From assembly GCA_041661645.1 (NCBI GenBank), contig JBAZUA010000003.1, forward strand, positions 22,841-86,840: 64,000 nucleotides of DNA, in the 5' to 3' direction. Numbering within the stretch: the stretch's first letter is position 1; every line of letters starts with the position of its first letter. Source of the stretch: Minisyncoccota bacterium (GTDB lineage: Bacteria; Patescibacteriota; Minisyncoccia; Phycocordibacterales; UBA6065). This document shows positions 15,317 through 34,107 of this stretch, one piece after another. Position numbers and translations under genes: made by a program. The notes under the pieces were generated by a model that was given only the letters and a program-made list of their open reading frames with translations, had not been told where the DNA came from and did no database searches.

Positions 15317-15389
15317 CCGCCCATAGCTCAGTCGGTAGAGCAGCTCCCTTTTAAGGAGAGGGTCCCAGGTTCGATTCCTGGTGGGCGGA
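15317..15389 (+). tRNA. tRNA-Lys (anticodon TTT)
   Basis: Cloverleaf: acceptor CCGCCCA/TGGGCGG, D arm GCTC..GAGC, anticodon loop CTTTTAA, T arm CCAGG TTCGATT CCTGG; no encoded CCA. Confidence 0.85.
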
Positions 15390-15465
15390 CACTCATGTGA
15401 TAGGTTCGGAGTCCGAGAAGGCTTCTTTTGGCTTGTGGAATAAGCTCGTGTATTATTGATGCACG

Positions 15466-18645: not shown

Positions 18646-18855
18646 GCTGTCTTTTATGGTGTCCACTATGTCCACTTTCTCTCTAAACGAGACACTGTCT
18701 AAACATGCCTTAGGAGTGTCTCATTCACAGGAATATTAGCCCTTCTGTACCCTAGATGTGACAGTGTGCAACACACGCTCAAAAGTGTCGGATTTGTCGG
18801 ATTTTGACCCGACCTACTTGCCTCATTACGCCTGCACGTCCATAATCAAAACAAC

Positions 18856-18902
18856 CCTTATGGCGCGCCACTTTACAATTTCCGAGACCGATTCGGGGGA
18901 CA
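18856..18902 (+). repeat. 47-nt element, copy 1 (ccttatggcgcgccactttacaatttccgagaccgattcgggggaca)
   Basis: Near-identical (44/47) to copy at 20165-20211. Confidence 0.8.
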
Positions 18903-18942: not shown

Positions 18943-19178
18943 AGCCGGAGCGATGTTTTTCGCTTCGAAAAACTGCGAGGTGGGGTCGCGGACATTCCGA
19001 GCGACGGCGATAAATGATCCGTGACGACACTTATGTGAGACAGACCGAGAGGGCTAAGCGTGGCTTTGTTTTCAAAGAGTAAGATAAAGTCGCGAATCTA
19101 TTTAGTGATCAAGAGGGGAATAAGGTGATATTTAGGCATTTACCTAATGGGTACGGGGGAGGTAAAATAGCGATACGT

Positions 19179-19940
19179 ATGAAACCCCGTACTCCTCGAG
19201 CTTTCACCTTGATAGAACTCCTCGTTGTCATTTCCATCATTAGCTTACTCTCGTCCGTGGTTCTTGCCTCCTTGAATTCTGCGCGGAACAAAGGAAAGCT
19301 TGCGGCCATTAAAGGCAATCTTCAAAATATGATTACCCAAATGGAGCTTTCATATTCAGACAATGGAAACTACGGAGGTATAAATGGAGCGGGAACACCG
19401 CCATATCGTCCGAGTACCATTTGCCTTGGGCCAATCGCAGGCATGGCCCGGGCCACATCAAACGGGGGAGCCAAGGCTCGGTGTCTCTCCACCAATTTTT
19501 CAGGTTGGAGCGATGTCAACAAAAGGTGGGGAGCCACAGCCCTTCAATACACCACAACAGCTCCCGTCAAAGCGTGGTCGGCTTCCCCGTCTGGAGTAAT
19601 CGCCTGGGATGCACAGGGGGTGAACTCCTCCGGCGCATTCGTGGGTACTGATGTAACCATGAACTGGGACACGGCAGTTGCCGCTTGTGCCACAGCGGGA
19701 GGCCGTCTTCCCACGGTCGAGGAACTCAAAACGCTCGGCGACGCCCAGTGCGAAGCCCTTGGAAGCACCGACTGCACAGTAGACTCCGCAAGAAATCCTC
19801 CAGGCTTCCAGGCCACCTTCTACTGGTCGGGTACTGGGGTTCCGAGCGATGGGTCTCAGGCGTACACCGTGTACTTATACCGCGGCAGCATGTACAACTA
19901 CCCCAAGGCCAATGGCTACTACGTTCGGTGCGTCCGCTAG
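19179..19940 (+). CDS. type IV pilin / pseudopilin (prepilin N-terminal methylation domain)
   Basis: MKPRTPRA|FTLIELLVVISIISLL: class III signal peptide, Glu at +5; larger C-terminal domain ending in a Cys pair. Confidence 0.75.
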   Translation: MKPRTPRAFTLIELLVVISIISLLSSVVLASLNSARNKGKLAAIKGNLQNMITQMELSYSDNGNYGGINGAGTPPYRPSTICLGPIAGMARATSNGGAKARCLSTNFSGWSDVNKRWGATALQYTTTAPVKAWSASPSGVIAWDAQGVNSSGAFVGTDVTMNWDTAVAACATAGGRLPTVEELKTLGDAQCEALGSTDCTVDSARNPPGFQATFYWSGTGVPSDGSQAYTVYLYRGSMYNYPKANGYYVRCVR

Positions 19941-20164
19941 CATTCCTCGTTCCAATCCGCCGTCTGGCCTGAGATGCCCTTTGAATATGACCACATTCTC
20001 ACTTTCAATTTGAGCAGGGAATGGAGGGACAGAATGAATTTATTGTTATATATCTTTCCTGCAAATAAGATATTGACTGAACCTACCCTAAGGGCGTTTG
20101 TCTTGTCGGACTTTGCCCTGATCAACTTGCTTCATTTCTCCTTGCCGAGCATAATTCAAAGCGT

Positions 20165-20211
20165 CCTTATGGCGCGCCACTTTACAATTTACGAGCCCGA
20201 TTCGGGGGACA
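20165..20211 (+). repeat. 47-nt element, copy 2, immediately upstream of trmH-like start codon
   Basis: ccttatggcgcgccactttacaatttacgagcccgattcgggggaca. Confidence 0.8.
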
Positions 20212-23931: not shown

Positions 23932-23960
23932 TTGACTTTAGGTATGTTTAGGTGTATAAT
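23932..23960 (+). promoter_or_regulatory. sigma70-like promoter TTGACT-17-TATAAT upstream of DGR target gene
   Basis: Consensus hexamers with 17-nt spacer, about 190 nt upstream of start at 24154. Confidence 0.55.
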
Positions 23961-24006: not shown

Positions 24007-24058
24007 TGGCTGCGGAATACAGGCTGTTTGAGGCCAAATCGTCTGTATTCCGCAGCCA
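24007..24058 (+). other. perfect 16-bp inverted repeat (tggctgcggaatacag ... ctgtattccgcagcca), 20-nt loop, in 5' leader of DGR target
   Basis: Seen directly. Confidence 0.7.
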
Positions 24059-24153: not shown

Positions 24154-24732
24154 ATGAGCAATTCTGAAAATGCTACGTCCGCCCAGCTCCTGCAAGTCAT
24201 CGCCAAGTTCGCCCAAACCATTCCCGTCGATGCAGATCGACGGGAGGTGCAGAAGGCGATCGAGGATAATGACGATCCCTTCTGGGTCTTTCTGAAAGAG
24301 CGTTTCGCCAAGAAGGCTGTCGAGGTCGCGAAGGCGGCCAGAGGCGCCCTTGCCGAGATGGTCGCTCTCGGTCGCTACGACTGGGTGAGCGAGCACATCA
24401 ATGAGAAGAACTTTCCTCCGGAAAGTCTCGTTCTCGGCTCGGACCCCAAGGTCTTCCACTTCAATCGGTATATCTCATCGGAAGATGCGATTGCCGAGAT
24501 GGAGAAGAAGGGATATCGTCCAGCGACTCTCGGTGACTTGCTCGATTACGGGGCCAAGAACCCCGAGGAACAGCGCGAGTATCCGATTGTCGCCCTTGGG
24601 TCTGTCGCCGTCCTCGACGATGGTCGCCGCGTGGCTTGCCTCGGCGGGCACGGTTCGGCTCGCCGCCTCAGCCTGCACGGGTTCGATGGCGACTGGGGTG
24701 GCCACTGCCGCTTCCTGGCGGTTCGCAAATAA
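24154..24732 (+). CDS. DGR target protein (variable protein) with C-terminal variable repeat
   Basis: 192-aa ORF; last ~42 codons form VR matching the TR with adenine-specific differences. Confidence 0.8.
   Translation: MSNSENATSAQLLQVIAKFAQTIPVDADRREVQKAIEDNDDPFWVFLKERFAKKAVEVAKAARGALAEMVALGRYDWVSEHINEKNFPPESLVLGSDPKVFHFNRYISSEDAIAEMEKKGYRPATLGDLLDYGAKNPEEQREYPIVALGSVAVLDDGRRVACLGGHGSARRLSLHGFDGDWGGHCRFLAVRK
24599..24726 (+). repeat. DGR variable repeat (VR)
   Basis: 128 bp; 105/128 identical to TR; all 23 mismatches fall at TR adenines. Confidence 0.85.
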
Positions 24733-25074
24733 GTTCTTTGTCTCCTCATGCCTTTGGATCTAGTCCTTTGGCCCTTGGAAACTTTGGACCTCGACCGCGC
24801 TTTCTTCAAGATTGCGCGGTTTTCTTTTGCCCGATACCCTCATATAATATTCTTCGACAGATGAAAAATCCTCGGTCACGGCTTTGGGTAATCTGTCCGC
24901 AACGCTCGGGAGGGGATTTTTCGCGGCTACGGTTTCGAAAAGAGTCTTCCGTGCCTTCGTTCAAAAATAAAGAACAGTTGGTGTGAGACACTATGCGACG
25001 CACAAGGTCGCTTATACCAAAATACAGCCCCGAGAGCACTCGAGGGGCGGTGGGGCAGACGGTATCTCACACAA

Positions 25075-25202
25075 GGTCTGTCGCCGTCATCGACGATGAT
25101 CGCAACGTGGCTTACCTCAACAGGAACGATTCGGATCGCAACCTCAACCTGAACAGGTTCGATAACGACTGGAATGACAACTACCGCTTCCTGGCGGTTC
25201 GC
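25075..25202 (+). repeat. DGR template repeat (TR)
   Basis: 128 bp non-coding template with 31 adenines (23 substituted in VR); identical 3' end (ccgcttcctggcggttcgc) = IMH-like region; followed by GC hairpin ctcccgagacccagtctcgggag. Confidence 0.85.
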
Positions 25203-25642
25203 TACTGCTCCTTTTTCTCCCGAGACCCAGTCTCGGGAGTTTTGTTTGCCAGCTGTCGCCGCCATCCGCCGAGCATTCTCCCGACCTCGAAGAGCTGTTC
25301 GGAAATGGCGGCGTATTTCTTGCCATCCAAGGCCCGGTTGTCCCATGAAAGCTCAACCAAGAGTTTGAGAAGGTCCACTCGCGAGATGCATCTGTCGAGC
25401 AATACTATCTTTTCAGCTATTTGTGAATAGCTTGCGAGGAAGCAATATTCAATCGCTACAAGAAAGACATCATCTATCTTTGTCCCGAGGGTGAATCGAC
25501 TGGCTTTCGGGAAGTGCGCGAGACAATTCTGCCATGTCCCATAGGACTCCTTTAGCTTAAGGATAACGGGGATGAGCTTTGGTTGCGAAAAACTGCGGGG
25601 GGGGGTAACTTGAGGGGTGTGTCCAGGATTCAATTCTGCCAT
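25202..25642 (-). CDS. avd: Avd-like accessory variability determinant (four-helix-bundle / 23S rRNA IVS protein family)
   Basis: HFPK...IDDVFLVAIEY...KKYAAISEQLFEVGRMLGGW pattern typical of TIGR02436/Avd; encoded on opposite strand between TR and RT; true start likely internal. Confidence 0.55.
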   Translation of the reverse strand: MAELNPGHTPQVTPPRSFSQPKLIPVILKLKESYGTWQNCLAHFPKASRFTLGTKIDDVFLVAIEYCFLASYSQIAEKIVLLDRCISRVDLLKLLVELSWDNRALDGKKYAAISEQLFEVGRMLGGWRRQLANKTPETGSREKKEQ

Positions 25643-26608
25643 GCCTACAAAGATATCATTTCCGTGGATAATTTGCTGTGCGCGTGGAGGGAGTTCAGAA
25701 AGGGGAAGCGTGCCAAGAGGGATGTTCAGGAATTTGAGATAAACCTAACCAATAATATCTTATCCCTATATGAGGAATTAAGGGAAAAACGTTATGAGCA
25801 TGGCGGATATCACGCCTTCAATATCTCTGACCCGAAACCTCGCAGCATTCACAAGGCCCTGGTACGAGACAGGCTTCTCCATCATGCCCTGTATCGCAAG
25901 CTCTACCCATTTTTCGACAGGACGTTCGTCTCAGATTCGTTCTCGTGCAGGAATAATAAGGGCACGCACAGGGCAATCGAGCGGTTTACGGCTTTTGGGC
26001 GCAAGGTATCGAAAAACAACACTCGCACGATCTTCGTCTTGAAATGCGACGTGAGGAAGTTCTTTGCTTCCATAGATCATGATGTTTTGTTCGGGATACT
26101 TTCGATCTATATAAAGGATGAGGATATCCTCTGGTTGTTGAAAAAGGTCGTGTCGAGTTTCAATTCGGGAAGGGAAGGGGTCGGCCTGCCGCTGGGAAAC
26201 CTCACTTCCCAGCTTCTCGTGAACATATACATGAACGAGTTTGACCAGTTCGTGAAGCATAAGATTGGGGCGAAATACTATGTCCGTTATGCGGATGATT
26301 TCGTGACGCTTTCCGACGATAAAGAATATCTTGAGAGGGTGTTGTCGCGAATGGGGGAGTTTCTCAAATCAAATCTCAGGCTCGCGCTGCATCCCGACAA
26401 GGTATATATAAAAACACTAGCGTCGGGGGTCGATTTTCTGGGTTGGGTGCACTTTCCGCATCATCGGGTGCTTCGAGGCGCCACGAGGAGAAAGATGCTG
26501 AGGAATCTGGCGAACGATCCGAAAGAGGCAGCCAGGATTTCATATTTGGGACTGCTCAAGCATGGTAATGCCAAGAGGCTTGAGTGCCATATTGGCCCGC
26601 TTGCCTAA
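25583..26608 (+). CDS. DGR reverse transcriptase
   Basis: LPLGNLTSQ (DGR-specific motif 4), YVRYADDFV (YxDD), N-terminal AWREFRKGKR region. Confidence 0.9.
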   Translation: MRKTAGGGNLRGVSRIQFCHAYKDIISVDNLLCAWREFRKGKRAKRDVQEFEINLTNNILSLYEELREKRYEHGGYHAFNISDPKPRSIHKALVRDRLLHHALYRKLYPFFDRTFVSDSFSCRNNKGTHRAIERFTAFGRKVSKNNTRTIFVLKCDVRKFFASIDHDVLFGILSIYIKDEDILWLLKKVVSSFNSGREGVGLPLGNLTSQLLVNIYMNEFDQFVKHKIGAKYYVRYADDFVTLSDDKEYLERVLSRMGEFLKSNLRLALHPDKVYIKTLASGVDFLGWVHFPHHRVLRGATRRKMLRNLANDPKEAARISYLGLLKHGNAKRLECHIGPLA

Positions 26609-26658: not shown

Positions 26659-26868
26659 ATGTCCACATTATCAATACCCCTCACTGCCGACCTCGAGGGC
26701 GTGGTCAACAGGCTCGTGAAAAGTGGCTATGGGGCAAACAAGGCCGATGTCGTCCGAAAAGCACTCCGAAAGCTTTCGGAAGACCAGGCTGTTGAGGCTA
26801 TTCTACGTGCCCAGGCGGAGCCGAGCCTTAAGGGTGATTTGAGGGATCTCATGAAGAAGTTCAAATGA
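26659..26868 (+). CDS. type II antitoxin, ribbon-helix-helix (ParD/CopG-like)
   Basis: 69 aa; 4-nt overlap (ATGA) with downstream toxin. Confidence 0.55.
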   Translation: MSTLSIPLTADLEGVVNRLVKSGYGANKADVVRKALRKLSEDQAVEAILRAQAEPSLKGDLRDLMKKFK

Positions 26869-27125
26869 TAGAACTTCTTTTCAAGCCCTCTTTTGTGCGA
26901 ACCGTAAACGGGCTTGAGGAAGCCTTGGTGGAAGAGGTGTTTGAAAAGATTGAATTATTCAAAGACCCCAAGAACCACGATGCTCTGAGGGTTCATAAGT
27001 TAAAGGGACGTTTTTCTGACTGCCACAGCTTTTCTGTAAATTACAGGTTTAGGATTATATTTGAGTATTCTGGAAAGAAAGAGGCGACACTTCTGTTTAT
27101 CGGTGACCATGATATATACAAGTAG
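26865..27125 (+). CDS. type II toxin, RelE/ParE family
   Basis: 86 aa; C-terminal YRFRIIFEYSGKKEATLLFIGDHDIYK typical of RelE/ParE. Confidence 0.7.
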   Translation: MIELLFKPSFVRTVNGLEEALVEEVFEKIELFKDPKNHDALRVHKLKGRFSDCHSFSVNYRFRIIFEYSGKKEATLLFIGDHDIYK

Positions 27126-34097: not shown

Positions 34098-34107
34098 CCC
34101 CCCCCCC
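34098..34107. repeat. C10 homopolymer tract in intergenic region
   Basis: ggcccccccccccaacc read directly. Confidence 0.8.

Follow-up and report, generated by a model that had tools for sequence, protein, structure and literature searches.

The question raised by the locus at 24154-26608 of a 64,000-nucleotide stretch of Minisyncoccota bacterium DNA (contig JBAZUA010000003.1 of assembly GCA_041661645.1; the whole stretch is called the window here) was whether it holds a complete diversity-generating retroelement (DGR), and how such an element, with its accessory gene inverted between the template and the reverse transcriptase (RT), would prime and stop reverse transcription without a spacer 3' of the template. 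An original prediction made from the letters alone had read the locus as a DGR, and this reading was found to be correct. Judged by its sequence, the locus is a complete and apparently intact DGR of the B3 class typical of the candidate phyla radiation (CPR), with adenine-specific differences between a template repeat (TR) and a variable repeat (VR), an RT of the DGR kind and an Avd homologue all present and intact. The best explanation, held with high confidence, was a chromosomal cellular DGR of the Patescibacteria type in the order target(VR)-TR-(avd, opposite strand)-RT, with a mechanism that would be primed from an RNA leader. The core features were as follows.

24154..24732, plus strand: DGR target (variable protein) gene, 192 aa, with a helical N-terminal region (~1-65) and a C-type-lectin-like domain (~70-192)
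24599..24726, plus strand: VR, target codons ~150-191, with 23/23 mismatches to the TR at TR adenines
25075..25202, plus strand: TR, the 128-nt repeat shared with the VR, with 31 adenines
25202..25642, minus strand: avd (accessory variability determinant), 146-aa open reading frame (ORF), Pfam bAvd 45.4 bits, antisense to the TR and RT
25619..26608, plus strand: DGR reverse transcriptase, ORF open from TTG 25583, RVT_1 75 bits, bRT 8ub7 E 4.3e-44

The VR and TR formed a direct repeat of 128 nt that aligned without gaps at 82% identity, the copies lying 476 nt apart, and the realignment recovered the same coordinates as originally given. All 23 mismatches had A in the TR (16 A>G, seven A>C and no A>T) and none was found at another base, while eight of the 31 TR adenines were unchanged in the VR; the counts of the original prediction were thus exactly reproduced. 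Given 31 A among 128 positions, the probability that all 23 mismatches would fall on A by chance was 6.9e-15. Every mismatch was in codon position 1 or 2 of the target ORF, and the 18 differing codons within the repeat comprised eight AAC, one AAT, three GAT, one GAC, two TAC, two AGG and one ATC. None of the A-containing TR codons was able to mutate to a stop, and the accessible diversity was approximately 4e18 peptides. The placement of the VR agreed with the proposal that the C-terminal ~42 residues of the target are hypermutated. The 3' ends of both repeats, previously described as identical and similar to an initiation of mutagenic homing (IMH) site, shared the 19 nt CCGCTTCCTGGCGGTTCGC, which was confined to these two sites in the window when up to 3 mismatches were allowed (expected 0.02), and no further VR was found by this search. 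The repeat may extend 1-2 nt further 5', where the TR has AA at 25073-74 and the VR has TG.

The RT matched RVT_1 in Pfam, and its best match among the solved structures in PDB was the Bordetella phage DGR RT (bRT, 8ub7) with 154 bits, while the best group II intron RT scored 77 bits and retron RTs ≤77 bits. Both motifs named in the original prediction were present, LPLGNLTSQ at residue 202 and YADD at residue 236, and the equivalent of bRT Arg74 was kept within KPRSI (motif KPR(S/L)I). The start codon was probably GTG 25619 and not the first in-frame TTG at 25583, because relatives begin at an ATG a few codons before the conserved I/F-x-F-x-H-x-Y-x-D-I. On these matches the RT is of the DGR kind and its ORF is apparently intact. 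The Avd-like protein claimed for the locus passed the Pfam bAvd cut-off of 40 bits (E 1.2e-11), with a profile coverage that excluded the N-terminal ~23 aa and the C-terminal ~16 aa of the ORF. Its gene was found to be on the minus strand, inverted between the TR and RT, which was a detail missing from the first reading, and its 3' tail overlapped the hairpin that follows the TR.

The C-type lectin (CLec)-like nature proposed for the target was examined by structure prediction, which produced a confident model of a C-type-lectin-like fold. Foldseek searches of this model against PDB and BFVD showed weak CLec matches only (E ≥ 0.03), with no solved DGR variable protein among the top structural matches, and a sequence search against PDB chains gave no match. 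With moderate confidence, the 192-aa protein is predicted to have a CLec-type fold on which the variable residues are displayed. No match in Pfam or NCBIfam was obtained for the window protein or for any of the 120 aligned homologues, and in the window protein neither a signal peptide nor a membrane segment nor a known domain could be recognised. Across the 120 homologues, entropy was 2.72 bits at positions from A-containing TR codons and 0.94 bits at the interleaved scaffold positions; the coincidence of family hypervariability with A-containing TR codons was counted in favour of the DGR reading. The invariant scaffold residues of the target are V160, L163, R170, L172, L174, W181 and RFLAVR.

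An identical target protein was annotated as hypothetical in a public Candidatus Paceibacterota metagenome-assembled genome. The cassette was flanked by genes for a Mur ligase and fpg upstream and by ruvA and rpsT downstream, and these housekeeping neighbours indicate a cellular, chromosomal DGR. A search for the target family returned 336 proteins at E ≤ 1e-3, and relatives were encoded in 178 species-level genomes, nearly all of them Patescibacteria. A total of 80 species-level loci were fetched, and in 35 of these Avd (minus strand) and RT (plus strand) were directly downstream of the target, ordered and oriented as in the window. In the B3 relatives (>30 loci), 724 TR/VR mismatches were at A and 48 elsewhere, counts that are biased toward A by an alignment scoring that tolerates A mismatches. 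With the target upstream, the core order of TR (plus strand), avd (minus strand) and RT (plus strand) corresponded to architecture B3, defined by a TR-(avd)-RT order in which avd is reversed, and reported for 90% of CPR DGRs (Wu et al. 2018, PMC5758913). CPR DGRs belong to clade 2, and their targets are typically without transmembrane or recognisable domains (Roux et al. 2021, PMC8144416).

The interval between the target stop codon and the TR was 340 nt in the window, and both its length (mostly 300-375 nt) and its sequence were conserved among B3 loci. The following elements were identified from this interval to the hairpin after the TR.

24843..24848, plus strand: -10-like TATAAT, probable promoter of the TR RNA; related loci have TATAAT, TAAAAT or TACAAT at this position of the alignment
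24858..25072, plus strand: structured RNA leader 5' of the TR, from covariation and a covariance model match
24868-24889, plus strand: leader hairpin with a CACG tetraloop
24904-24954, plus strand: leader compound hairpin with a UACG tetraloop
24969..24992, plus strand: leader strand pairing with both TR flanks, from covariation in the whole-unit fold; functional reading by analogy with Bordetella phage BPP-1
24995-25011 and 25025-25052, plus strand: leader hairpins
25061-25072, plus strand: leader closing strand
25217..25248, plus strand: 10-bp GC hairpin and U-tract after the TR, from a terminator scan; covarying stems in related loci

Folding of the leader with RNAalifold on 34 loci produced 44 predicted pairs, 38 of them with compensatory changes. 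For the whole unit, in a 33-locus alignment, 88.3% of the cells held standard pairs compared to 41-45% when the partners were slid by 1-3 columns, and the covariation score was 0.59 compared to 0.12-0.18 when slid; none of 500 shuffles reached the observed values. A covariance model of the 3' half of the leader, made from loci other than the window and its near relative L007, showed a single match in the window, at 24962-25072 on the plus strand (90.9 bits, E 3e-16). Length-variable insertions in the leader were located only in hairpin loops. Two predicted pairings were rejected. The first, between 24880-24890 and 25254-25263, competes with the first leader hairpin, has one-sided (wobble) changes only and has avd coding sequence as its 3' partner; the second, 24877:24880 at the inner end of the first leader hairpin, would close a loop of 2 nt and was an alignment artefact. 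Rfam searches at the gathering threshold over the whole window found no RT-associated motif and only tRNAs, and at E ≤ 10 over 24700-25700 returned noise. The leader/TR region matched no Rfam family, the RT-associated motifs that Weinberg et al. 2017 described (e.g. RT-10) among them. In the literature searched, no description of a 5' leader or a permuted DGR RNA in CPR was found.

The GC hairpin had been placed directly after the TR in the original prediction. The hairpin was confirmed, as CTCCCGAGAC-CCA-GTCTCGGGAG at 25217-25239 followed by TTTTGTTTG, but its position was corrected, since it starts 14 nt past the TR. A hairpin and T-run were present 10-17 nt past the TR in 34/34 related loci, with widely different, covarying stem sequences. 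The hairpin was kept whether the antisense avd stopped before, inside or beyond it, which argues for the hairpin as the constrained element, with the Avd tail simply running across it. It resembles an intrinsic terminator, an Avd-binding stem-loop or both. The TR was shown to lie within a conserved, structured RNA unit, and promoter, leader, TR and terminator would mark this out as a discrete unit at approximately 24855-25248. Neither the structured RNA around the TR nor the terminator-like character of the hairpin had been noted in the original prediction.

Within this unit, one leader strand was paired with both flanks of the TR. The helix 24969-24980 : 25213-25200, which involves the last 3 nt of the TR and 11 nt downstream, had changes on both sides in 8/11 pairs, and the helix 24981-24992 : 25072-25061, which involves the 12 nt directly 5' of the TR, had them in 9/12 pairs. 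Because one strand pairs with both flanks, the TR would emerge as a large loop between two adjacent duplexes. In the cryo-electron microscopy structures of the BPP-1 DGR ribonucleoprotein, Sp53-56 pairs with TR118-121 as a template:primer duplex with priming from Sp A56, and the 'cPRT stop' duplex is formed by Sp59-70 with the piece of avd that lies just upstream of the TR (bioRxiv 10.1101/2023.10.23.563531).

By analogy with this system, the proposed mechanism would start with an RNA of ~390 nt transcribed from its own promoter (-10 at 24843-24848), which would carry a ~210-nt leader and the TR and end at the hairpin and U-tract 25217-25248. RT and Avd, produced from the divergent genes, would bind this RNA. 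The leader hairpins at 24868-24889 and 24918-24941 (~9 bp, bulge, CACG/UACG tetraloops) are candidate Avd-binding stem-loops, since they resemble those described in the BPP-1 preprint, with the post-TR hairpin as a third candidate. The leader strand 24969-24992 would pair with 25200-25213 as a primer-like duplex and with 25061-25072 as a stop-like duplex. Synthesis of cDNA would then be primed in cis at approximately G24980, with ~25199 as the first templated base, and would be stopped at 25073 by the second duplex, with misincorporation opposite the 31 TR adenines during synthesis. The cDNA would replace the VR through the invariant 3' homology CCGCTTCCTGGCGGTTCGC, of which 16 invariant nt (25184-25199) would remain on the cDNA for homing. 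In this way up to 22 codons (~4e18 peptides) would be re-randomised on one face of the C-type-lectin-like domain without producing stop codons.

Several findings weigh against the reading of a working, leader-primed DGR. In the RNA, the three pairs nearest to the TR and the proposed priming site (G24980:C25200, U:G and U24978:A25204) were invariant, so covariation gives them no support, and in the window's own 24969-24980 helix two of the 11 pairs were mismatched. Both ends of the transcript, the nucleotide used for priming and the site of the stop were themselves placed by analogy. For Avd, the score against NCBIfam DivGenRetAVD (60.7 bits) was under the cut-off of 80, and a sequence search against PDB gave no match. 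As for activity, clade 2 DGRs have a below-average apparent activity (Roux et al. 2021, PMC8144416), no target variant at ≥90% identity was found in the protein collection, and an identical VR allele was present in three assemblies (Logan SRR18595301, JGI 3300014208 and ENA ERZ27249449), whose samples are possibly not independent.

The points on the RNA bear on the alternative that survives best, in which the leader is outside the RT machinery as a cis-regulatory element or an independent small RNA, priming takes place from RNA 3' of the TR, antisense to avd, as in BPP-1, and the hairpin serves Avd binding only and is no terminator. This was judged unlikely, though a serious contender. In a survey, 207/278 DGRs, CPR elements included, had Avd-binding stem-loops and up/downstream 'stop' duplexes just past the TR, with an input of 40 nt upstream and 100 nt downstream of the TR. 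The pairs beside the proposed priming site, being invariant, are beyond confirmation by covariation. In addition, a near-copy (13/14 nt) of the TR/VR 5' end (CTGTCGCCGCCATC) was located at 25253-25266 on the plus strand, 50 nt past the TR and within the avd coding sequence, which also fits this alternative and may be chance. However, leader and TR were contiguous in all B3 loci examined. The closing helix of the leader runs exactly up to the TR 5' boundary, and its other strand forms pairs over the TR 3' boundary, of which the distal ones carry compensatory changes. The T-run after the hairpin was kept even where avd ends before it. Finally, the sequence past the hairpin codes for avd, and its conservation is therefore uninformative on RNA function.

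The points on activity bear on a second alternative, in which the DGR is structurally intact but silent or rarely firing, the VR is a selected fixed allele and the cassette is heading for loss as in related strains. The related loci that bear on it were as follows.

L001 (from a different run): same VR, identity to the window 99.99% over 10.3 kb
L002 and L003: two short contigs from other assemblies, same VR, break just past the VR
L007 (7698-8270): TR and Avd present, RT truncated; 36 TR/VR mismatches, 12-13 not at A
L006 (1034-1047): target terminator straight to a toxin-antitoxin pair; the junction keeps the final 9 nt of the RT gene, CTTGCCTAA
L004 and L005: no cassette, ruvA directly after the target
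L082 (5619-5900): leader, TR and terminator, avd/RT not detectable
L083 and L017: leader without recognisable TR

The last 9 nt of the RT gene at the L006 junction indicate that the cassette was deleted there. The VRs of syntenic relatives departed from the window TR chiefly at A positions. The VR of L004 showed 24 differences to the window TR, 20 at A and four elsewhere; at these four positions the TR of L007 also differed from the window TR, at three with the same base, which indicates that the L004 VR was written from a TR of its own. L051 was also listed among the loci with stages of DGR decay. A silent DGR was considered improbable. The shared VR of the three assemblies, the repeated loss or decay at the syntenic site (L006, L004, L005 and L007), the loci that retain the leader alone, with or without a TR, and the low activity reported for clade 2 would fit it. 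Against it, no non-A difference was found over the 128 nt though the syntenic relatives differ by ~20% in flanking DNA, and the RT ORF, Avd ORF and RNA structure were all intact; moreover, assemblies give a consensus, so that minority VR variants are hidden. The absence of non-A differences and the intact genes, compared to the decayed relatives (12-13 non-A mismatches in L007), argue that the DGR of the window is active or was recently active.

The weakest alternative, an ordinary partial gene duplication with chance or biased divergence beside an unrelated group II intron-type or retron-type RT, has in its favour that the top NCBIfam model for the RT was a group II RT/maturase, but this was held to be extremely improbable because the model scored 138 bits against a cut-off of 300 with the retron models likewise far below their cut-offs, the RT of only ~330 aa was closest to bRT and lacked a maturase or endonuclease extension, Rfam showed no RNA family of introns or retrons, Avd was present, all 23 differences fell on adenines of one copy (P ~7e-15) and the same A pattern was found in >30 independent loci.

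The identical 3' ends of the VR and TR imply that something downstream must tell the recipient from the donor. No GC inverted repeat or GC cruciform was found beside the VR; a CTTGG repeat array was located there instead, 3' of the VR and not of the TR. This array, a poly-G tract and the signals of the target gene were as follows.

23932..23960, plus strand: sigma-70-like promoter of the target gene, TTGACT-17-TATAAT, 11/12 consensus matches, by pattern match only
24750..24790, plus strand: CTTGG/TTTGG motif array between the target stop and its terminator; spacing 7-14 nt in the window and, across the family, mostly 8 nt
24794..24829, plus strand: terminator-like hairpin of the target gene (ACCGCGC...GCGCGGT and T-run), read from the sequence, with equivalents visible in relatives
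25597..25605, plus strand: poly-G tract (G9) 13 nt ahead of the probable RT start, within the divergent avd/RT 5' region and inside the annotated avd 5' end on the other strand

In the 90 nt that follow target-family genes, CTTGG was enriched 12.7-fold. The array was found in 42/83 loci, some of them without a cassette, at ~57-fold over the rest of the loci; it was strand-specific and absent after the TR. It is a candidate recognition element on the VR side, and a role in the 3' untranslated region (UTR) is equally possible. The poly-G tract was at the same place in 25/36 surveyed related loci and in L016, with a length of G8-G14, and of the 31 G/C runs of ≥8 nt found across 730 kb from related loci, 26 were such tracts. 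Because its position is conserved while its length varies, the tract suggests a slipped-strand switch (phase variation) or a regulatory element, with the reservation that homopolymer lengths are unreliable in metagenome assemblies. The sole other G/C run of ≥7 nt in the window was a C10 homopolymer at 34098-34107, where a 102-aa ORF and a P-type ATPase gene converge. The target's probable 5' UTR held, between the promoter-like site and the start codon at 24154, a 24-nt inverted repeat (88% complementary, 4-nt loop) at 24007-24058 on the plus strand.

A wider model was put together from these elements. In this lineage, and probably in B3 CPR DGRs, the template would be carried by a self-contained ~390-nt RNA with a core that is circularly permuted relative to BPP-1, its duplex-forming strand and presumed Avd-binding stem-loops being placed 5' of the TR, and cis-primed at approximately G24980, with the CTTGG array maybe marking the recipient and the poly-G tract maybe switching expression. 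This model is tentative and was given somewhat less than an even chance of holding as a whole. The leader, terminator-like hairpin, CTTGG array and poly-G tract appear to be features of the class and not peculiarities of the locus, and no description of them was found in the literature searched.

Other observations in the window were made outside the cassette. Directly after the RT, an RHH-like gene (26659-26868) and a HigB/RelE-like gene (26865-27125) overlapped on the plus strand, both below the Pfam cut-offs. This pair was present in L006, which has no cassette, and absent in L004 and L005; this putative toxin-antitoxin pair is thus independent of the cassette and a separate accessory insertion in the same hotspot between the target gene and ruvA. 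A 109-nt direct repeat at 18794-18902 and 20103-20211 on the plus strand (81% identity) was rejected as a second TR/VR pair as its mismatches were not A-biased. The repeat flanks 19125-19940, which encodes a 271-aa pilin-like protein whose N-terminus has a methylation motif and whose Lcl_C/DUF1566 domain ends in YYVRCVR. This domain type is often targeted by DGRs, and no TR for the pilin-like gene was found. Finally, a UAA-suppressor tRNA ('Stop', anticodon TTA) called by ARAGORN at 15317-15390 on the plus strand was rejected. Canonical numbering (7-nt loop CUUUUAA) gives the anticodon UUU, and the gene is probably a tRNA-Lys with an ARAGORN call off by one base.

As a DGR the element is ordinary, since CPR are known to be rich in such elements and the genome was already public with the genes annotated as hypothetical. 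Its value lies in being a clean and intact example of a large family (178 genome loci or more), accompanied by a natural series of relatives in which the cassette at this chromosomal site is decayed or deleted. What adds interest is the support from comparison for a DGR RNA that is permuted and self-contained, along with two unexplained conserved DNA elements. The RNA model offers a testable account of how CPR DGRs with an inverted avd prime and stop reverse transcription without a 3' spacer, and the CTTGG array and poly-G tract could bear on target recognition and regulation in DGRs beyond the Bordetella phage paradigm.

Compared to the CPR B3 and clade 2 DGRs, nothing tested sets the window element apart. 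It shares the Candidatus Paceibacterota host, the chromosomal housekeeping context and the order target-TR-inverted avd-RT, together with a C-terminal VR in a small protein without domains or membrane segments, A-specific mismatches and identical TR/VR 3' ends. Compared to the solved CLec variable proteins (Mtd, TvpA, archaeal AvpA PMC5006420 and Thermus TaqVP PMC6328139), the target is alike in having its variable residues in the C-terminal ~40 residues, interleaved with an invariant scaffold. It is unlike them in its compact domain (~120 aa) with a variable helical N-terminal region and in having no PDB sequence match.

With the BPP-1 DGR (mtd-avd-TR-brt), the element shares a homologous RT, the presence of Avd, adenine-specific mutagenesis of AAY-rich codons and a CLec-type target fold. 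The predicted RNA topology is also alike, with the TR looped between a template:primer-like duplex and a duplex with the segment directly 5' of the TR, as are the tetraloop-capped stem-loops of ~9 bp. Unlike BPP-1, the element is cellular and not phage-borne, its RNA matches neither RT-10 nor any other Rfam family, its IMH and IMH* are identical, and a CTTGG array takes the place of the GC cruciform beside the VR. The interval between the TR and RT is antisense avd and not a structured spacer, and the inverted avd leaves no room for the Sp spacer 3' of the TR. The duplex-forming strand is located 5' of the TR here and in the 3' spacer in the phage, a difference that amounts to a circular permutation.

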